The translations under genes and the position numbers were made by a program. This document shows positions 1,949 through 60,329 of a stretch of DNA of 64,000 nt, one piece after another (the stretch's first letter is position 1; every line of letters starts with the position of its first letter). The notes under the pieces were generated by a model. That model did no database searches. It saw only the letters and a list, made by a program, of their open reading frames with translations, and had not been told where the DNA came from. The DNA lies in IMG/VR virus record IMGVR_UViG_3300009027_000005, positions 1,045 through 65,044 of that record. The stretch is one strand, 5' to 3'. This DNA is from a virus. Taxonomy: Duplodnaviria; Caudoviricetes.

Positions 1949-2633
1949 AGCACTTATAATTCGCAGACTCCAAGTTCCATTATCTATGGAATATGCACAA
2001 ATTTGTGCGGAGTCTTGCGAAAAATATAATCTTCCGTACGAATTTATAGATGCAGTTGAGTTTTTAAACTGCAAAAAAGCATTTCAATCTGTAGGAACCT
2101 ACAAAAACGGAAATTATCATATAAGAGATGGCAACTGTTGTTGTCATGCATCACATATAAAGTGTTGGAAACGGATTATTGAATTAAACAAAGCATGTAT
2201 AATTTTAGAACATGATGCAGTAGTAAAGGGTAATGTATGTAATATTGATATACCTGATATGGCTACAGTAACGTTCGGTCATAGAGTTGGTAGTATTGAT
2301 GACTATAGTCCACCAGAAGAAGCATACAAATTAGTAAGAATAAAAAGATCATTAGGTGTACATGCTTGTGGCTTAACACCTATAAGTGCAAAATGGTTAT
2401 GGGAACATGCAAGAGACAACGGAGTAAAAGCAGAAGTTGATCATTTATTAATGATGAGACCTCCTACACTATTACCGTTGTATGTATGTGAACCACCTCA
2501 AGTAGTATGTTGGGAAAGAGTTTCTACTTCTAAATTTACAAAAGATAATCACATAGATGATAGACCTAATGAAACTATAAAAGTTTTTCCAGAATCTATT
2601 ACTGAAGGCTGGAAAAAAGGCAAAAAAATATAA
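1935..2633 (+). CDS. Glycosyltransferase family 25-like
   Basis: CHASHIKCW followed by IILEHDA, matching the GT25 CxxSHxxxW...ILEDD pattern. Confidence 0.65.
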   Translation: MKIDKALIIRRLQVPLSMEYAQICAESCEKYNLPYEFIDAVEFLNCKKAFQSVGTYKNGNYHIRDGNCCCHASHIKCWKRIIELNKACIILEHDAVVKGNVCNIDIPDMATVTFGHRVGSIDDYSPPEEAYKLVRIKRSLGVHACGLTPISAKWLWEHARDNGVKAEVDHLLMMRPPTLLPLYVCEPPQVVCWERVSTSKFTKDNHIDDRPNETIKVFPESITEGWKKGKKI

Positions 2634-2641
2634 AAAAATGG

Positions 2642-2669
2642 TTGACTTTTATTTGTAAGATGTTATATT
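2642..2669 (+). promoter_or_regulatory. sigma70-type promoter with extended -10
   Basis: TTGACT(2642)-16 nt-TATATT(2664) preceded by TGn. Confidence 0.65.
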
Positions 2670-2674
2670 AATAA

Positions 2675-2882
2675 TATAACAAGACGTTGTTATACGGGTT
2701 GGCGCTAATAATTTCCAATCTAGAGGAAATAGGCGCACTTGGTTAGGGGTAGTGCCCGGCATGTACTACAGAGATGTAGAGTATGCTAACTGCGATACTA
2801 AGCAGAACCGAGGTTCTAGGCGTAACAGATGAAAGGTATCTAGACGCATAGTTGGAGGTAAACCCAAGTCCTTCACCCACCC
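2675..2882 (+). ncRNA. Unclassified ~200-nt multi-hairpin ncRNA
   Basis: GC-richer intergenic block between a promoter and a terminator; at least seven hairpins, including CTACA-GAGA-TGTAG; no credible ORF. Confidence 0.65.
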
Positions 2883-2889
2883 TTATTTT

Positions 2890-2915
2890 AAAGCCCGCCA
2901 CTGTGCGGGCTTTTT
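2890..2915 (+). terminator. Rho-independent terminator
   Basis: AAAGCCCGC-cactgt-GCGGGCTTT followed by a T run. Confidence 0.85.
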
Positions 2916-2925
2916 CCTTTTGTGA

Positions 2926-3013
2926 TAAATACTTGTGTCTAATAGTGTGCCGCAAGGCGGACTTATGCTGTACCCGCAGCGTAGACCTAGAACGTCAAAT
3001 AAGGAGAAAAACA
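2926..3013 (+). promoter_or_regulatory. Late promoter plus structured 5' leader
   Basis: TAAATA at 2926; hairpins GCC-GCAA-GGC, TATGCTG/CAGCGTA and GAC/GTC before the AAGGAG RBS. Confidence 0.6.
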
Positions 3014-3397
3014 ATGGGAAGACCAATAAACAAAAGAAAAATAGGCCAAGGCTTAGGAAAAATTGAAGTATCAACTGTAAAATTTGCAGCAGGTGGTGAA
3101 GTAACTAATGCATGGATTGTTTCGCAACGATCATCAAATAAATTTATTGTATCAGACGGTACTAAAACTGAAACATGTACACTAGTTAACAAAGCATCAG
3201 GTGCATTAGGTGCTAGCGAATTTAATATTAATGCTGTATTGGACGACTCTACTGTTGTACAAGTTACTAAACTTTATAATAGAAAGATTCAATACGAAGC
3301 AGGCACAACTGATGTAGATACTATAAAGTATAATGTTGGACCAGGCGACGAAAACGATGATGCATCAGGAACAGCAACAGTTCCGGTTCAAGACTAA
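3014..3397 (+). CDS. Probable virion structural protein
   Basis: ATG 3014 (MGRPINKRK) behind TAAGGAG; beta-rich; first gene of the late structural block. Confidence 0.7.
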   Translation: MGRPINKRKIGQGLGKIEVSTVKFAAGGEVTNAWIVSQRSSNKFIVSDGTKTETCTLVNKASGALGASEFNINAVLDDSTVVQVTKLYNRKIQYEAGTTDVDTIKYNVGPGDENDDASGTATVPVQD

Positions 3398-3409
3398 TAG
3401 GAATAGTAA

Positions 3410-4363
3410 ATGTCAAAATACGTAAAAACCAGTGGTGATTTTACGATAAAGACATCTTCTGGTGGTACCATAAAATTGGACACAGGCGGTGAAGTGGGTT
3501 TAGTTTGGGTAACCGGCGACCTACGAGTCCAAGGTACCACCACTACTGTTCAATCAACTGATGTAACAATAACCGACAACATAATAGAATTAAATTCTGG
3601 CGAAACATCAGGCGAAGTTACATTAGGTTCATCGGGTATAAGAATTGTTAGAGATGTAAATCCTGGCGCCGACGCTTATTGGGCGTATCACGACGATACT
3701 CCTGATTCTATAAATGGAAGAGGTTTATGGAGAGCACGACACGATAGCGGCGATTTTGTAGGTATTGCAACTAATTATATTAATACTAGCGGAAGTAATT
3801 TATATCTAATTAATTCTAATAGCGGTGTTGTTACAGTCGGAACAAGTCTTAATTATGAAAATAGAGTAACTGATCCTAATCACGTACCTAATAAAAAGTA
3901 TGTAGATGATTCTATTTCAACTGCATTTGCAACAGTTCTCTTACCACAAATTGGTGATGGTGTATTAACGCCGTCTGGTATTGTTGTAAGAGATGAAGAA
4001 ACTAGCGGTGTAGATAGTCGTATTGATTTTTCAATCGATAGTGCAGTAGTTGCTCAATTATATTCTGATGGTTTTGAATTTACAGATATTAGAATCAGTG
4101 GAACAACAATCGAAACAATAACCACTGATGCCGACGATTTACTTTTAAGAGCGTGGGGCGACGGTTCTGTTAGAATTGAAGACACATTGTTAATTAATAA
4201 AGTGCCTTCGGGATATACTCCTAGTGTTCCAGACGACGGTGTTAAAGTGTATACATCAAATGAATACTCAGGAAAAACAGGAATATATTTCGTAAATGAG
4301 AACGAAACTAGAGATGAATTAGTAAGTAAAAATAGATCTTTACTTTTTAGTATGATATTTTAA
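3410..4363 (+). CDS. Tail fibre-like structural protein
   Basis: GDLRVQGTTTTV, DNIIELNSGE and NKKYVD fibre-shaft motifs; hydrophobic C-terminus LLFSMIF. Confidence 0.65.
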   Translation: MSKYVKTSGDFTIKTSSGGTIKLDTGGEVGLVWVTGDLRVQGTTTTVQSTDVTITDNIIELNSGETSGEVTLGSSGIRIVRDVNPGADAYWAYHDDTPDSINGRGLWRARHDSGDFVGIATNYINTSGSNLYLINSNSGVVTVGTSLNYENRVTDPNHVPNKKYVDDSISTAFATVLLPQIGDGVLTPSGIVVRDEETSGVDSRIDFSIDSAVVAQLYSDGFEFTDIRISGTTIETITTDADDLLLRAWGDGSVRIEDTLLINKVPSGYTPSVPDDGVKVYTSNEYSGKTGIYFVNENETRDELVSKNRSLLFSMIF

Positions 4364-5343: not shown

Positions 5344-7824
5344 ATGGCAGAACCACAAAATGGCAGAATTGGCGGCGGCGTATTAGCAGATAACCTGTTA
5401 CGTAACGGCATTGACCTTAAATTTTATCAATCGTCAGGATTAGTTGCTGAGCCTATACCTTTATTACACTTAGATGTAAACAATAGTAGAATTGGCGTAA
5501 ACATAGACGGTCCTGGCTTTGACCTAGAAACTCCTGTCGATTTAAGAAGTACAAACTTAATTGCAACAACAACGACTATAGATAATTTTGATATAGCAAA
5601 CAGTAGAATAGATTATTTTACTGGTGCTGATCTATTATTATCTTCAAACTCTACAATTGAAGCAACTAGTATTGCTACAGACGATCTATTATTTGATTAT
5701 AACACAGTAAGTTCAAGAACTGCTAATACAAATATTGAACTACGTCCGGATGGTACTGGTGAAATAAACATAAGATCTAATTGGAATAGCACTGGCGATA
5801 TACATGCAACTGGAGATATTACATTCGGAGGAAATCTTACACTTGGTGATAACGATACTGACAATGTAACCTTTAATGCAGATTTAGATAGTAGTCTTAT
5901 TCCAGACGCTAATAACACATATCAACTAGGTAATACAGCAAAAAGATGGTTAAACTTATATAGTAATTTATTAAACGGTCAAAGAGTAACTGTAGGAAGT
6001 TTTTCAGTTAGCGATACTAGTTTAGCAGTAAGACAAGGTAATATTTTTTATGTTAGTACATTAGGTGACGACACAAATGTAGGAGATCATCAACACGGTG
6101 CTTTTAGAACACTAAAACATGCGTTAGATGTAGTAGATGCAAGTTCAGCAGGCCCAGTTACAATACATATTTTTCCAGGAGAGTATGAGGAAGAATTTCC
6201 GTTAACTATTCCGCCAAACACAAGTATTCGTGGTGAAGATATAAGAAATACTATTATCAAACCTACAGTTGCAACACAAGACAAAGATGCATTCCTTATG
6301 GAAGGCAATACAACTATTGCTGATATTACTATAAAAGATTTTTATTACGATAGCGTAGGAGACACAGGTTACGCCTTTCGATTTACTCCAAATGGATTAG
6401 TAAATGAAAGAAGCCCATATATTAGAAATGTAACTGTTATTACACAAGGTAGTGTAACAAGTGCAAGTGATCCTAGAGGGTTTTTGGAGGGAGATGCAGG
6501 CAAAGGCGCATTAATAGACGGAAATGAATTAAACAGTTTAACTATTGAAGGTAGTATGTTGTTTCATAGTGTAACTTTTATTACTCCAGGTGTTGATTGT
6601 ATTACAATGACAAATGGTACAAGAGTTGAATGGCTTAATTGTTTTACATATTTTGCAAATAGAAGTTTATATGCTACGCAAGGAGCAGACGGGCTAGGCG
6701 GCAACGGAGTTCGTTACGGAGCAGAAGTCCGTTCAATTGGAAGTGCCAGTATCTATGGTAATTACGGTGCAGTAGCAGATGGCGCAGATACATTAATGTA
6801 TTTAATAGGTCATAACTTTGCATATGTAGGTACAGCAAATGATGTATCTAATGATGCAACATTAGTTATAGAAGAAAATGAAGCTGTTGAACTAAATGAC
6901 GGCGCAATACATTTTACTAGTACAAATGCAGCTGGAAAATTTAAAGTAGGAAATTCATTTTTTGCAGATTTTGAAACAGGCACTACAAGTATAGATGCCA
7001 CTGGTGTAGATTTTTCAGGATTAAGTGAAATAGTTGTTAGAAATGGATTAGAAAGAACGTTTATTGATGGCACACGCATAGATACTGGAAATATTAGAAT
7101 AAGTGGAAACACAATAGATACTATTGACGGACAACTTATACTAAGCCCAGTTACAGAAATTATTAATACTTCGTCTAACGACGGATTTGTATTGAGCAAT
7201 GGCAACGATAACGAAAGAACCGATGTAGAAGGATCTATTAGATTTAATACAGATACAAATTTATTTGAAGGGTTTTCAACAGGTAATTTAAGTTTTGGCG
7301 GTGTTTATTCTGATGATAGAAATACTAGTGTAACAGCTCATAACACAAATAATAGTTTAATTTTTACAGGCGGAAGTGCAACAACTGGTGTACTAGACAA
7401 TTCAACATTTACTCTGTTAGGATTATCAGATGGAGATGTTTTATTTGATACAAATGTAATAGAAACTACATTGAGTAATAGCGATTTAGAAATACTCCCT
7501 AATGGTACAGGAATAGTTGCTCCTTTTGATTTAGAAATTTTTAGCGAAACTATATCTAACACAACAGATAATTTAATGGTTATTACTGCTGAAGGTAGAG
7601 GTTATATTAAATTTGATTCAACTACAGGATTAGTTGTTCCAAACGGTACAACTTTACAACAAAACCCTTCACCCGAAACTGGTGAAACAAGATATAATTC
7701 TCAAGAAGGTTATATGGAAACATGGAACGGATCTGCATGGCAACGGTCTGCAGGTGAAGGCGAAGAAGTTACTGAAGATCTCCTCAAAGAACTAGTTGAT
7801 ATTTATACATTAGTTCTTGGTTAA
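5344..7824 (+). CDS. Tail fibre/spike protein with beta-helix-like core (paralog of 7984-11322)
   Basis: YVSTLGDD, TIHIFPGEYEE, SPYIRNVTVIT and RYN...E.W motifs. Confidence 0.75.
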   Translation: MAEPQNGRIGGGVLADNLLRNGIDLKFYQSSGLVAEPIPLLHLDVNNSRIGVNIDGPGFDLETPVDLRSTNLIATTTTIDNFDIANSRIDYFTGADLLLSSNSTIEATSIATDDLLFDYNTVSSRTANTNIELRPDGTGEINIRSNWNSTGDIHATGDITFGGNLTLGDNDTDNVTFNADLDSSLIPDANNTYQLGNTAKRWLNLYSNLLNGQRVTVGSFSVSDTSLAVRQGNIFYVSTLGDDTNVGDHQHGAFRTLKHALDVVDASSAGPVTIHIFPGEYEEEFPLTIPPNTSIRGEDIRNTIIKPTVATQDKDAFLMEGNTTIADITIKDFYYDSVGDTGYAFRFTPNGLVNERSPYIRNVTVITQGSVTSASDPRGFLEGDAGKGALIDGNELNSLTIEGSMLFHSVTFITPGVDCITMTNGTRVEWLNCFTYFANRSLYATQGADGLGGNGVRYGAEVRSIGSASIYGNYGAVADGADTLMYLIGHNFAYVGTANDVSNDATLVIEENEAVELNDGAIHFTSTNAAGKFKVGNSFFADFETGTTSIDATGVDFSGLSEIVVRNGLERTFIDGTRIDTGNIRISGNTIDTIDGQLILSPVTEIINTSSNDGFVLSNGNDNERTDVEGSIRFNTDTNLFEGFSTGNLSFGGVYSDDRNTSVTAHNTNNSLIFTGGSATTGVLDNSTFTLLGLSDGDVLFDTNVIETTLSNSDLEILPNGTGIVAPFDLEIFSETISNTTDNLMVITAEGRGYIKFDSTTGLVVPNGTTLQQNPSPETGETRYNSQEGYMETWNGSAWQRSAGEGEEVTEDLLKELVDIYTLVLG

Positions 7825-48387: not shown

Positions 48388-51300
48388 ATGGCATTAGTAT
48401 CACCAGGCGTAGAAGTCAATGTAATTGACGAATCATTCTACACACCAGGAGCGGCTGCTACAGTCCCTATTATATTTGTTGCAACGACTGCAAACAAAAC
48501 AAAGGCATCTGGTAGCGGAGTTGCTCAAGGCACTTTACCTGAGAATGCAGGTAAAGCATATTTAGTAACAAGTCAAAGAGAATTAGGAGACTTATTCGGA
48601 GACGCAGCATTTGAATCTGATAACAACGGAAACATGATTCACGCAGGCGAACTAAATGAATATGGTCTAAACACAGCATACTCACTTTTAGGTGTAACAA
48701 ATCGTGCTTATGTAGTCAGAGCAGATGTTGACTTATCTGAACTAACTGCAAGTTCAACTGCACCTGGGGGCGAACCAGCAGACGGTGCGTATTGGTTTGA
48801 TACAACTAATACTGCATTTGGTATTTTAGAATGGAACGGTGAATCTGCAACTACTACTAATGGACAGTCATTTAGTGCTACAACTATTAGAGTAATCACA
48901 GAAGCAACTGATCTTAGCAACGATGTACCAAAAGCAGCAGTAGGATCTGTAGGCGAATATGCAATCGATGTAACATCAGACATGAATCGTTTGTTTTATA
49001 AAGCTTCAGGAAATGCTACAGGCGTAAGTGCAGGCGAATGGGTAGAAGTTGGTAGCGATAAGTGGGCAGCTAGTCATGCAACTGTAAAAGGTACCGTAAG
49101 AAATCCAACTCTTACAAATGGCGACGAAATGGTTATTAACACTACAACTGTAACACTAGCAGGCACAACTATTTCAGCTCTAGCAGGAAATATTAACAGT
49201 GCAGGTATAACAGGTGTAAGTGCAGCAGCAGTAGACGGTGTTCTTGAAATTTATGGTGATTCTACAGCAGCTTCAGACGGTGTAACTGCCGACGGTTTAA
49301 TTGTTATTAATGGCGGACAAGGTTCTTTAACAGGGCTAGCTGGTTCAGATAACGGTGGTACAGGTATACAAAATGGCACATATAGTATTCCAAGATTAAC
49401 TATTGCACCTCACACAAGTGTTCCTGAATACAAAGCTGGAGATACAGTTCCTGCACCAACTGGTAGTTTGTGGGTTAAAACAACTACACCAAATGGCGGC
49501 GCAAACTGGAGAATTAAGCAGTATAGTGATGCAACTCAACTTTGGAACAACGTTAGTGCTCCAATGTATACAAGCAACGAAGCAGCACTGTTTAATCTAG
49601 ACAAAGCAGGCGGTGGCGCAAATTTACTTGCAGGTGATTTGTATATCAAAGCAAATGTAGAAGAAGAAACTCCTACAGTTGCAGATTTCAAAATTCATTA
49701 TAGAGTTTCGAATGACGCTACTTCAATTGCATCAGCAAAAATTGAAACACAATTAGTCGCTGGTACTTATGATTTTGACATTGCTGAAACAACTGTAAAT
49801 AGTGCAACTAGAACAAACAAAACTATTAGTGTAACTATTGCAGGCGGTACTACTGCTGATGCAGACACAATTGCAGGCGCGATTAACGCAGCAGGATTTG
49901 CAAATGTAGTATCGTATGTAAATGCTTCAAACAAAGTAGTAATTGAACACAAAATTGGTGGCGATTTCCGTATTGCAGATACAGACGGATTGCTTACAAC
50001 AATGGGCTTTTCACCATTACTAGCAGATGGTAGTAATTCATCAACTGCAACTGCAAACTTATACGATAATGCTACAGGCGATTCAACACATGATTTTGTT
50101 GCATCAAACTGGAAGCCATTAACTTATAGTGCTTCTAATACAGAGCCACTAGCATTAACAACATCAGGACAACGTTGGTATAATTCTACAGTAGACGAAG
50201 TTGATATTATGATTAACAACGGAACTACATGGGTTGGATACCAAAATTACAATGACGATTATGCTGATACAGACCCAGCAGGTCCAATTGTAAGTGCATC
50301 ACAGCCAACAGAACAATCAGATACTACTCCTTTAGTTGATGGAGATATTTGGATTTCAACAGCAGATCTTGAAAACTTCCCACTAGTATATCGTTATAAT
50401 GGTACTACTGAAGAGTTTGTATTAGTTGACAAAACAGATCAAACTACTGAAAACGGCATCTTATTTGCAGACGCACGTTGGAGTACAACTGGCGGTGCTA
50501 CAGACGGACCATACGAAGCAGGTGACATTGACGAGTTACTAGTAAATGATTACCTAGATCCTGATGCTCCAGATCCAGCACTATATCCAAAAGGTATGAT
50601 GCTTTGGAACACACGTAGAAGCGGATTTAACGTTAAGCGTTTTGAGCGTAACTACATTGATGTAGACGGTTCAAACGGCCGTTATGAAGTTGACGATCCT
50701 AACAGTGCTGATCCAGATGATGTAATTGACCAACCAATGGCAGATTACTATCCACATCGTTGGGTTACTGATTCAGGTAATAACGAAGATGGTTCAGGCA
50801 CATTTGGACGTTTTGCACAGCGTAAATCAGTTATCCAAGCTCTACAATCATTAGTAAATAGTAACCAAGATATACGTGATGAAGAATCACGTCAGTTTAA
50901 CTTGATTGCTTGCCCTGGTTATCCGGAACTAATTGGCGAAATGATCACTCTAAACTATGACAGACGCCTAACAGCATTTGTTGTAGGTGACACACCAGCA
51001 AGGCTAACACCAGATGCAACTTCACTAAATGAATGGGCATCAAATGTTAGAGGCGCACTTGAAGATAATGACATAGGTGCTGTATCAAAAGATGAATATC
51101 TTGGAATGTACTATCCATGGGGATTCTCAAGTGATAACTTTGGTAACAATGTTGTAGTTCCACCAAGTCATATGGCACTACGTACACTTGTACTAAATGA
51201 CCAAGTTGCATTCCCCTGGTTTGCACCAGCAGGAACAAGACGCGGTGGTGTTACAAATGCTACAAGTTCAGGCTATGTAAATAGCGAAGGAGAATTTGTA

Positions 51301-51750
51301 GGTATAGCTCTAAACACAGGACAGCGTGATACACTCTATACAAATCAAATTAACCCAATCACATTTATAAGTGGTGCAGGATTAGTTGTATTTGGACAAA
51401 AAACTCGTGCAAGAAATGCTTCTGCACTAGATAGAGTAAACGTAGCACGTTTAGTTGTTTACTTACGTGGACAATTAGAACTACTAGCAAGACCATACTT
51501 GTTTGAACCAAATGATAAGATCACACGTGATCAGATTAAATCAGCTGCTGATCAGCTGTTAATTGAATTAGTAGGCCTTAGAGCATTGTATGACTTCTTA
51601 GTTGTATGTGACGAGTCAAACAATACTCCTGCTAGAATTGACAGGAATGAGTTATACTTAGACATTGCAATTGAGCCAGTCAAAGCAATTGAATTTATTT
51701 ACATTCCATTAAGACTTAAGAATACAGGAGAAATTGCAGCTCTAGGATAA
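48388..51750 (+). CDS. Contractile tail sheath protein (gp18-like) with large insertions
   Basis: MALVSPGVEV start; PWFAPAGTRRG, INPI, RVNVARL, LFEPND and PVKAIEFIYI motifs. Confidence 0.95.
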   Translation: MALVSPGVEVNVIDESFYTPGAAATVPIIFVATTANKTKASGSGVAQGTLPENAGKAYLVTSQRELGDLFGDAAFESDNNGNMIHAGELNEYGLNTAYSLLGVTNRAYVVRADVDLSELTASSTAPGGEPADGAYWFDTTNTAFGILEWNGESATTTNGQSFSATTIRVITEATDLSNDVPKAAVGSVGEYAIDVTSDMNRLFYKASGNATGVSAGEWVEVGSDKWAASHATVKGTVRNPTLTNGDEMVINTTTVTLAGTTISALAGNINSAGITGVSAAAVDGVLEIYGDSTAASDGVTADGLIVINGGQGSLTGLAGSDNGGTGIQNGTYSIPRLTIAPHTSVPEYKAGDTVPAPTGSLWVKTTTPNGGANWRIKQYSDATQLWNNVSAPMYTSNEAALFNLDKAGGGANLLAGDLYIKANVEEETPTVADFKIHYRVSNDATSIASAKIETQLVAGTYDFDIAETTVNSATRTNKTISVTIAGGTTADADTIAGAINAAGFANVVSYVNASNKVVIEHKIGGDFRIADTDGLLTTMGFSPLLADGSNSSTATANLYDNATGDSTHDFVASNWKPLTYSASNTEPLALTTSGQRWYNSTVDEVDIMINNGTTWVGYQNYNDDYADTDPAGPIVSASQPTEQSDTTPLVDGDIWISTADLENFPLVYRYNGTTEEFVLVDKTDQTTENGILFADARWSTTGGATDGPYEAGDIDELLVNDYLDPDAPDPALYPKGMMLWNTRRSGFNVKRFERNYIDVDGSNGRYEVDDPNSADPDDVIDQPMADYYPHRWVTDSGNNEDGSGTFGRFAQRKSVIQALQSLVNSNQDIRDEESRQFNLIACPGYPELIGEMITLNYDRRLTAFVVGDTPARLTPDATSLNEWASNVRGALEDNDIGAVSKDEYLGMYYPWGFSSDNFGNNVVVPPSHMALRTLVLNDQVAFPWFAPAGTRRGGVTNATSSGYVNSEGEFVGIALNTGQRDTLYTNQINPITFISGAGLVVFGQKTRARNASALDRVNVARLVVYLRGQLELLARPYLFEPNDKITRDQIKSAADQLLIELVGLRALYDFLVVCDESNNTPARIDRNELYLDIAIEPVKAIEFIYIPLRLKNTGEIAALG

Positions 51751-58748: not shown

Positions 58749-60329
58749 ATGTCAAAGAGTTTAGATGGAGTATTAACCAAAAAGGCTAATACAAAAGAAA
58801 CATATACAGAAGAACAAATACAGGATCTTATGCAGTGTATGGATCCTGAAAAAGGCTATCTGTATTTTGCACGTAAGTTTGCATATATCCAACATCCTGT
58901 AAAAGGCAAACTGTTGTTTGAACCTTTTGACTATCAGCTAGGATTAATGGACACTTATCATAACTATCGTTTTAACATTAACATGATGCCTAGACAAACT
59001 GGTAAGACAACGTGTGCTAGTATCTATCTTGCTTGGTATGCAATGTTTAATCCAGATCAAACTATTCTTATTGCTGCACACAAATACACAGGTGCGCAAG
59101 AGATTATGGCTCGTATACGCTATGTGTATGAAACTTGTCCTGATCATATTAGAGCAGGTGTTACATCGTATAACAAAGGTAGCATAGAGTTTGAGAATGG
59201 TAGTAGGATTGTAAGCCAAACAACAACAGGCAACACAGGACGTGGTATGTCTATTTCATTACTATACTGCGACGAGTTTGCGTTTGTACAACCAAACATT
59301 GCTGAAGAATTTTGGACTTCAATTTCACCTACACTAGCAACAGGTGGTCGTGCTATTATTACAAGTACACCAAACTCAGACGAAGATACATTTGCTACTA
59401 TTTGGAAACAAGCAGAACAACGTTTTGATGATCATGGTAACGAAAGTGAACTAGGTATTAACGGATTCCGTTCGTTTGTGGCACGTTGGGACGAACATCC
59501 TGATCGTGACGAAGAATGGAAAGCAGCTGAGATCGGACGTATTGGAGAAGAAAAATTCCGTCGTGAATACGGCTGTGAATTCTTAGTATTTGACGAAACA
59601 CTAATTAATTCAATTAAACTTGCAGTAATGGAAGGCGATTCGCCGATCTTAAATATGGGTCAAACACGTTGGTACAAAAAGCCTACAAGTCAATACACAT
59701 ATGCAATAGCACTAGATCCTAGTATGGGCACGGGTGGAGATAACGCTGCTATACAGGTATTCGAATTGCCTACATATGAACAAGTTGCAGAATGGCAGCA
59801 TAATCAAACTGCTATACCTGGACAAATACGTGTATTATCAGACATATGTAGATATATAGAAGAATGTACAAAAAACCCGCAGGGTATATATTGGAGTGTA
59901 GAAAACAATGGGTTGGGAGAAGCCGCACTTATCGTTATCAATGACTTTGGGGAGGAAAACATCCCTGGTTTGTTTGTTAGTGAACCCATACGTAAAGGAC
60001 ACGTTAGAAAGTTCCGCAAAGGATTTAACACAACACACAGTACCAAAGTTACAGCTTGTTCACGACTCAAAACAATGATAGAGAATGACAAAATGATTGT
60101 ACATTCTAAACCATTTATATCAGAATTAAAAGGCTATGTTGCTACAGGATCAAGTTACCAAGCCAAAAACGGAATGACAGACGATTTAATTAGTGCAACA
60201 CTTTTATCATTAAGAATGATGGATGTATTAAAAGATTGGGATCCAAGAGTCTACAATACATTCACACAAGCAGAAGACCTAGAAGATTACGAGCCGCCAA
60301 TGCCGATCTTTATTAGCAGCAACTATTGA
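58749..60329 (+). CDS. Terminase large subunit (gp17-like)
   Basis: PRQTGKTT Walker A, LLYCDEFAF Walker B, ITSTPN, FRREYGCEF, ALDPSMG, DDL nuclease Asp. Confidence 0.96.
   Translation: MSKSLDGVLTKKANTKETYTEEQIQDLMQCMDPEKGYLYFARKFAYIQHPVKGKLLFEPFDYQLGLMDTYHNYRFNINMMPRQTGKTTCASIYLAWYAMFNPDQTILIAAHKYTGAQEIMARIRYVYETCPDHIRAGVTSYNKGSIEFENGSRIVSQTTTGNTGRGMSISLLYCDEFAFVQPNIAEEFWTSISPTLATGGRAIITSTPNSDEDTFATIWKQAEQRFDDHGNESELGINGFRSFVARWDEHPDRDEEWKAAEIGRIGEEKFRREYGCEFLVFDETLINSIKLAVMEGDSPILNMGQTRWYKKPTSQYTYAIALDPSMGTGGDNAAIQVFELPTYEQVAEWQHNQTAIPGQIRVLSDICRYIEECTKNPQGIYWSVENNGLGEAALIVINDFGEENIPGLFVSEPIRKGHVRKFRKGFNTTHSTKVTACSRLKTMIENDKMIVHSKPFISELKGYVATGSSYQAKNGMTDDLISATLLSLRMMDVLKDWDPRVYNTFTQAEDLEDYEPPMPIFISSNY

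Follow-up and report, generated by a model that had tools for sequence, protein, structure and literature searches.

The manA motif was first described in 2010 (Weinberg et al., 2010, Genome Biol 11:R31; PMC2864571), where it was listed as a riboswitch candidate, a proposal to which its 5'-leader arrangement had led. Rfam types the family (RF01745) as Cis-reg, and manA has been filed as cis-regulatory, with no established function, since then. A bioRxiv preprint of July 2026 reports RNA-only assemblies of manA RNAs, namely octamers, decamers and a T=1 icosahedral shell of 60 subunits, with the pentamer as their common building block (10.64898/2026.07.01.735769). Here we analyse a manA RNA at positions 2677-2884 (+ strand) of a 64,000-nucleotide (nt) stretch of viral DNA, hereafter the window, which corresponds to bases 1045-65044 of the 65,044-base IMG/VR record IMGVR_UViG_3300009027_000005. 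With a probability of roughly three in four, we consider this copy to be a free-standing RNA gene, bounded by a promoter and a terminator of its own. The family itself was known; the stand-alone unit is what is worth passing on, and its genomic framing bears on the question of whether manA works in cis or as an independent RNA.

RNA-only nanocages have also been described for ROOL and GOLLD, phage and prophage RNAs often located near transfer RNA (tRNA) islands (Kretsch et al., 2025; PMC12286853). As far as the preprint describes manA assembly, manA resembles them in being phage-encoded, in keeping the company of tRNA islands and in forming closed homo-oligomers. Sequence and fold are unrelated, however, so that the likeness is one of lifestyle only and no homology is claimed. 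In size, GOLLD members exceed 800 nt and ROOL RNAs measure about 600 nt, compared with about 200 nt for manA. A further point of comparison is given by species 1 and 2 of phage T4 (rnaC/rnaD), small structured RNAs that are co-transcribed with tRNAs and freed by tRNA processing; the manA copies embedded in tRNA arrays would be expected to behave likewise, whereas the window copy lies outside any tRNA cluster.

A scan of the whole window against Rfam places RF01745 at 2677-2884 with 81.2 bits against a cut-off of 55.2 (E = 4.3e-19), and the match spans the entire model (positions 1-192 of 192). An earlier note on this DNA had taken the element for an unrecognised, novel RNA and had named a hit to a known Rfam family as the outcome that would speak against novelty. 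The flagged stretch is therefore a full-length manA RNA, a new member of a catalogued family and not a new RNA class. Only one other match in the 64 kb exceeds its cut-off, namely freshwater-2 RNA (RF02980), and the further matches returned by a permissive Rfam rescan of 2500-3200 were sub-threshold terminator look-alikes only. ARAGORN predicted no tRNA or transfer-messenger RNA (tmRNA) genes in the whole window and no Rfam family besides manA is above threshold at the element, in agreement with the previous statement that it is neither tRNA nor tmRNA. The sequence blocks characteristic of manA, GGURGUR in loop L5, AGGU after helix P4 and UG-NN-GGUA-N8-UCC in P9/L9, are all present in the window copy, which scores 136.8 bits with R1, our own covariance model made from a 52-sequence alignment and the window-derived structure. 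Thus, the copy agrees with RF01745 in score, coverage, helices and motifs, and lacks the 5'-leader position directly before a protein gene on which the Cis-reg label is based. This position is a matter of context and no structural criterion, and the window RNA stays in the manA family.

Compared to typical manA RNAs, the window copy has the same consensus architecture, shares the conserved loop and junction sequences and is likewise phage-borne, but it belongs to a divergent branch, with 81 bits as opposed to the 150-187 bits of marine cyanophage-like copies. Its helix P6 is extended, with a GNRA loop on top, loops L5 and L7 hold a compensated A-U pair, its carrier is a freshwater jumbo-type myovirus and not a T4-like cyanophage, and it lies between a promoter and a terminator instead of directly 5' of an open reading frame (ORF). 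Among the matches listed, copies of a sister branch reach 46-68 bits with the Rfam model, several of them below the curated cut-off.

The minimum-energy fold of 2677-2920 reproduces the family architecture, which we describe with our own helix numbers in 5'-to-3' order. P1 (2677-2682/2687-2692) is followed by the closing helix P2 (GGGU/ACCC, 2696-2699/2875-2878), which embraces P3 (2702-2705/2733-2736 and 2711-2716/2725-2730), a four-helix junction and the helices P8 (2816-2818/2849-2851, 2820-2823/2844-2847 and 2827-2830/2838-2841) and P9 (GGAGG/CCUUC, 2854-2858/2870-2874). The junction consists of P4 (2739-2744/2806-2811), P5 (2746-2748/2755-2757), P6 (2758-2763/2782-2787 and 2766-2770/2775-2779) and P7 (CUGC/GCAG, 2790-2793/2802-2805). 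The extended P6 is capped by the GNRA tetraloop GAGA (2771-2774), and loops of GAGA or GAAA also occur in folds of the sister and tRNA-embedded groups. In the same fold, the terminator is left as a separate hairpin. The fold energy of -78.9 kcal/mol (z = -2.96) is matched by 1 of 200 shuffles, and all 60 pairs of the window-derived structure are standard.

Comparison with relatives supports this structure. Among 61 matches aligned to R1, 58 of them distinct (alignment A3), the nested structure is paired in 78.9% compared with 61.7% in shuffles, and the covariation score of 0.400 (0.142 when shuffled) was reached by none of 500 shuffles. P2 is paired in 100% of these relatives, with covariation at 4 of 4 pairs, and P4 in 93.8%, with covariation at 6 of 6. 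The check on relatives that the earlier note had suggested thus yields strong covariation, and most of the helices it had picked out by eye are real: the hairpin at 2675/2677-2694 is P1, GCGC..AUUUCC/GGAAAU..GCGC at 2702-2736 is P3, GGCAUG..CUACA-GAGA-UGUAG..UAUGCU at 2758-2787 is P6 with its GNRA loop, CUGC/GCAG, GCGU..AGAU/AUCU..ACGC and GGAGG/CCUUC are P7, P8 and P9, and the pairing of GGGU with ACCC is P2. P4 and P5 were absent from that anatomy. A further hairpin, AGAAC/GTTCT (2804-2817), finds no support, being paired in 44.1% of relatives against 41.9% in shuffles with zero covariation. A long-range pseudoknot between 2737-2742 and 2864-2869 also fails: it has 6 base pairs in the window, is paired in 55.8% across the family against 52.4% in shuffles and in 64.3% when slid by one column, and part of it would occupy the 5' strand of P4. 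Among copies of the window's own group it is paired in 81.5%, and since shuffles pair as much (81.6%), this group is too uniform to judge it.

The RNA is framed by transcription signals. A consensus scan found one strong promoter-like site upstream and one strong terminator. The former is a sigma-70-type promoter at 2642-2669 (+ strand; TTGACT-16 nt-TG-n-TATATT) with 10 of 12 consensus matches and a TG ahead of the -10, whose predicted start, at about 2676-2677, falls on the first base of P1; its -35 (GGTTGAC) and -10 are conserved in alignments A1 and A4. The latter is an intrinsic terminator at 2890-2918 (+ strand), also seen in the fold and in relatives, made up of a stem-loop at 2890-2913, whose 9 pairs include 6 G-C, and a U run behind it. 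The terminator begins 5 nt past the manA match, has no bases in common with it and is separated from it by an A/U-rich spacer. The transcript ends of the window manA can thus be predicted from these signals. Host-type RNA polymerase would start at the sigma-70 promoter some 7 nt 5' of P1, copy the 208-nt manA domain and, after another 5 nt, halt at the terminator. This would yield a separate RNA some 240 nt long, which would not serve as leader to the next gene and would fold with P2 closing around P3, the P4-P7 junction, P8 and P9. The idea that the element is a structured phage non-coding RNA with a transcription unit of its own holds up well; its early expression, proposed at the same time, would be compatible with a host sigma-70-type promoter and may be supposed on that ground.

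In order to place this framing in context, a degenerate pattern of conserved manA blocks was run over viral contigs, with duplicates removed before context counts. The GGTGGTRC form of the pattern occurs at at least 120 loci; the Rfam model (E <= 0.001) identifies 76 of the 120 listed as manA, the others having matched the pattern by chance. The GGTAGTRC form, the window's type, occurs at 60 viral loci, 40 of them confirmed as manA by R1. Both signals are present in every assessable distinct copy of the window-type group (promoter 30/30, terminator 30/30), compared with 257/3120 (8.2%) and 150/3120 (4.8%), respectively, in random windows of the same loci. Among the matches listed, the sister group, which is of freshwater type, has a promoter in 19 of 19 copies and a terminator within 90 nt in 16 of 17, and lies 5' of ORFs of varying length and distance. 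The sequence of the terminator differs between lineages and its position is kept. The promoter, the strong terminator and the stand-alone framing that they form, all asserted in the earlier note, are therefore features kept in relatives.

The marine cyanophage-like copies (group A, 150-187 bits) are arranged differently downstream. Among the matches listed, 34 of 40 copies have a sigma-70 promoter whose end lies 1-9 nt ahead of manA and the remaining 6 carry TTGAC plus CTATAAATA in place of the -10; in group A and in group C, which comprises the freshwater-type sister and window-type branches, the -10 is placed so that transcription would begin at the first manA bases. The next feature in the 38 listed copies is an ORF start at 6-45 nt in 30, a tRNA at 3-6 nt in 5 and a terminator in 3, and a bare scan finds a terminator in 4 of the 38. 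As a separate observation, in many marine-like copies (L079, L136, L147, L056 and others) a G+C-rich hairpin with a T run behind it, located 20-50 nt upstream of manA, carries the -35 TTGACA in its loop, so that a terminator-like hairpin and the manA promoter share sequence.

The gene that follows manA in the window has signals of its own. The element GATAAATAC (2924-2932, + strand), which we take to resemble T4-type late promoters, is invariant in alignment A4, lies after the terminator and bounds the manA unit while belonging to the next gene; the form [GT]ATAAATA occurs in 27 of 28 assessable window-type relatives. It is followed by the freshwater-2 RNA (2946-3016, + strand; 52.8 bits against a cut-off of 49.9, model positions 1-84 of 84), a leader which runs through a Shine-Dalgarno sequence into the ATG at 3014-3016 and which reaches its cut-off in 18 of 28 related loci. 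The ATG opens ORF P0001 (3014-3397, + strand; 127 amino acids (aa)), the first gene of a structural block. Relatives of P0001 were found in 28 viral contigs, and R1 places a manA directly before the P0001 homologue at 10 of the 28 loci (L002, L004, L006, L008, L017 and L023-L027), with 3 of the 10 copies passing the Rfam cut-off; the manA module is therefore not tied to P0001. Where manA is present, the order is GGTTGAC/-10, manA, a lineage-variable terminator, GATAAATAC, the freshwater-2 leader, Shine-Dalgarno and ATG.

These observations carry the reading of the window manA as a free-standing RNA gene, because the terminator is separate from manA, the next gene is equipped with a promoter-like element and a leader of its own, the downstream features vary between copies and the tRNA-embedded copies described below would need release by tRNA processing. 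The main competing explanation, which we regard as unlikely, is that manA is a riboswitch or cis-acting leader whose ligand-dependent fold sets either a stop at 2890-2913 or read-through into the gene at 3014. This agrees with the Rfam type and with the candidate listing by Weinberg et al. (2010; PMC2864571), with the marine-like copies that have an ORF within 6-45 nt, and with a layout which is the classic one: as in terminating riboswitches, a complex, conserved, aptamer-sized fold at the 5' end of the transcript has an intrinsic terminator close behind it, within 5 nt. Unlike in such riboswitches, however, fold and terminator share no bases and are set apart by the A/U-rich spacer, and no anti-terminator alternative pairing is found in 17 folded transcripts of relatives. 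On inspection of these 17 minimum-energy folds, the terminator is its own hairpin beside an intact manA (further downstream in L112 and L102). Moreover, the downstream gene has its own conserved promoter-like GATAAATAC after the terminator plus its own leader motif, manA stands at just 10 of the 28 loci that hold P0001, and some copies lie between tRNA genes with 0-1 nt to spare. The downstream features are not constant (ORFs of different lengths, tRNAs, terminators), and no ligand for manA is reported in the published papers found.

Some observations weigh against a free-standing RNA gene. In group A, the largest, manA has the appearance of a 5' leader, given the nearby ORF in 30 of its 38 listed copies. 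In the window, there is no terminator between the end of the upstream gene (2633) and the manA promoter, and therefore manA may also be the tail of an upstream transcript. Six RNA-labelled runs contain 18-34% of sampled words, and contigs of four of them (X15-X18) were aligned; X16 alone among these covers manA, with a 185-nt contig at 2694-2878 and no differences, but its depth over manA (6.9) is near that of the flanks (4.7 upstream, 5.7 downstream), so that DNA carry-over or read-through is possible. Contigs of the X15, X17 and X18 libraries cover just 2950-3500. Assembled contigs give no transcript ends and neither show nor exclude a discrete RNA. It was also observed that contigs of the four RNA-library runs pile up on 2956-3051, at the freshwater-2 leader.

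Another explanation, less probable than the riboswitch, holds that manA is a stable RNA tied to the phage's tRNA supply or processing, as an enzyme substrate, a decoy or a holder of tRNA cargo, and that the stand-alone form is a variant. It draws on the intermediate group B (100-119 bits), whose six copies among the matches listed have no promoter (0/6) and all lie inside tRNA arrays, mostly 0-1 nt from their neighbours. Upstream, 5 of the 6 have a tRNA-Ile(UAU) whose end is 0-1 nt from manA, the sixth locus ending before that side; downstream, a tRNA-Pro(UGG) starts 0 nt after manA in 4 and a tRNA starts 125 nt after it in 2. In L090, for instance, manA (6872-7081) is wedged between tRNA-Ile (7081-7153) and tRNA-Pro (6799-6872), and copies arranged in this way would have to be released by tRNA processing. 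In line with this notion, a tRNA follows manA by 3-6 nt in 5 of the 38 listed marine-like copies, the sister copy L051 is flanked by tRNAs 71 nt upstream and 260 nt downstream, and the cage-forming ROOL and GOLLD are often found near tRNA islands (PMC12286853). Nevertheless, there are no tRNAs in the window, 16 of 17 listed sister copies have none within 400 nt, neither Rfam nor ARAGORN detected a tRNA-like fold, and adjacency may reflect just shared strong promoters for stable RNAs. Nothing in our analysis points toward the roles of decoy, antitoxin mimic, ribozyme or tRNA-like RNA that had been suggested for the window element. Regarding the arrays themselves, those of cyanophage-like contigs hold 8-9 tRNA genes (L090, 5029-8869; L107, 232-3251; L127, 3833-7295), with gaps between tRNAs of about 110-380 nt and a few far larger, and manA fills exactly one of them, from Ile to Pro.

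Finally, the readings as an unknown RNA class, as chance hairpins or as a small protein-coding gene are highly improbable: they could appeal to a blastn search of window positions 2600-3400 against 50,697 phage records that gave no match, and hence no annotated cultured relative, and to a minus-strand ORF of 70 aa (2743-2955) with a similar 77-aa ORF in L017, but the full-length RF01745 match (E = 4.3e-19) together with strong covariation refutes the first two, and the coding reading is rejected as L002, the closest relative by downstream protein, has no ORF of at least 30 aa across manA.

The window manA may be compared with the assemblies in the preprint, in which pentamers of manA_A0F1 are held by the kissing loops L5-L7' and L8-L9', and those of another variant by a GNRA loop-receptor contact, L5-L7' and L3-L8' (10.64898/2026.07.01.735769). 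In the window, L5 (GUAGUG, 2749-2754) and L7 (GAUACUAA, 2794-2801) are complementary over 5 pairs (UAGUG/UACUA, 2750-2754/2796-2800). This contact is paired in 94.0% across the family, and one of its pairs, G-C in 53 sequences, has become A-U in 2 rows of alignment A3, a double change found in 29 of 30 distinct window-type copies. L8 (GAAAGGU, 2831-2837) is complementary to L9 (UAAACCCAAGU, 2859-2869, whose CCAAGU is the 3' half of the unsupported pseudoknot), and in the window-type group 82.2% of cells retain this complementarity. Taken in the register of the window copy, the L8-L9 contact is not conserved across the family (22.2% paired), and an alignment-free loop test was used instead, both for L8-L9 by itself and as an all-against-all scan of six loops in which own loops were compared with loops swapped between types at a threshold of at least 4 Watson-Crick pairs. 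L5-L7 reaches it in 16 of 19 types with own loops against 87 of 230 with swapped ones, and L8-L9 in 15 of 28 against 112 of 696. L3-L7 is weaker (13 of 23 against 122 of 460), and the 12 remaining pairs differ little or not at all from background. The two that stand out most, L5-L7 and L8-L9, co-vary across the family and are the interfaces that the preprint names for manA_A0F1, our loop numbering being assumed equal to its own. Separately, loop L3 of P3 holds the palindrome UCUAGA (2719-2724), which 27 of 30 distinct window-type copies retain over a stem that varies; being self-complementary, it might allow two copies to pair through this loop.

Judging from the homologous manA RNAs that were imaged by cryo-electron microscopy, L5/L7 and L8/L9 would be expected to pair between copies, and the window RNA would then assemble into pentamer-based closed homo-oligomers. 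The GNRA-capped P6 and the loop pairs are compatible with such assembly. Caution comes from the window copy itself, in which L8-L9 amounts to 3 pairs only (GGU 2835-2837 with ACC 2862-2864; the relative L017 has 5), and from the labels L5-L9, which were equated with those of the preprint by assuming 5'-to-3' numbering. In addition, the oligomers were seen in vitro, with RNA at about 3 mg/mL refolded in 10 mM Mg, and not in cells (10.64898/2026.07.01.735769). The main text of the preprint is silent on terminators, tRNAs and in vivo behaviour (10.64898/2026.07.01.735769). Our literature search, which left supplementary tables uncovered, found no paper reporting a promoter/terminator framing or a tRNA embedding of manA.

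The carrier of the window manA is a large freshwater myovirus of jumbo type. CheckV estimates the record to be about 20% complete, and the genome would therefore measure about 300 kb. Genes for a CHAP/lysozyme-like protein, a peroxiredoxin and a glycosyltransferase-like protein lie upstream of manA, and those for baseplate wedge proteins, tail sheath, tail tube and large terminase lie downstream. The tail sheath (48388-51750; PHROG 10581) is unusually long, with 1120 aa, and the large terminase (58749-60329) shares at most 54.6% identity with its counterparts in Pseudomonas jumbo phages of the PA5oct group. R1 found manA in none of PA5oct, Atu_ph07 and Phosso, the nearest cultured phages by terminase, an empty result that proves little. 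Near-identical DNA is present in runs labelled freshwater, soil and estuary metagenome.

As for the structural genes, ATAAATAC occurs six times in the window (2925, 5318, 21845, 46619, 51795 and 60329), no more than the 6.7 expected by chance; all six sites are on the + strand, 4-82 nt upstream of + strand ORF starts. This strand and spacing, together with the presumed likeness to T4-type late promoters, make ATAAATAC a late-promoter candidate for these genes. The product of P0001 has no Pfam or PHROG family match and, in the Protein Atlas, only Ig-like leads below 0.9, on which no claim is made; a literature search on the freshwater-2 motif returned unrelated water-quality papers only. A glutamine riboswitch aptamer (RF01739, cut-off 35 bits) was observed about 150-250 nt upstream of the manA unit in L017 (1976-2023, 49.2 bits) and L027 (1855-1903, 42.3 bits), and none is found in the window.

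Taken together, the stand-alone framing of the window manA conflicts with the curated label of a cis-regulatory element or riboswitch candidate, fits the cryo-electron microscopy preprint of 2026 and yields defined, predicted transcript ends. We tentatively propose, at somewhat less than even odds, that manA RNAs in general are not riboswitches but autonomous cage RNAs of phages, comparable to ROOL and GOLLD at a length of 200 nt, which would form shells via L5-L7 and L8-L9 that hold or present cargo in infected cells. If so, manA would be made in three ways: (i) from its own promoter and terminator, (ii) by excision from tRNA arrays, or (iii) at the 5' end of a messenger RNA. The freshwater branch of the window would then represent the cleanest natural case of a stand-alone manA, and manA would become, after ROOL and GOLLD, the third phage RNA that forms cages and is found in the neighbourhood of tRNA genes.

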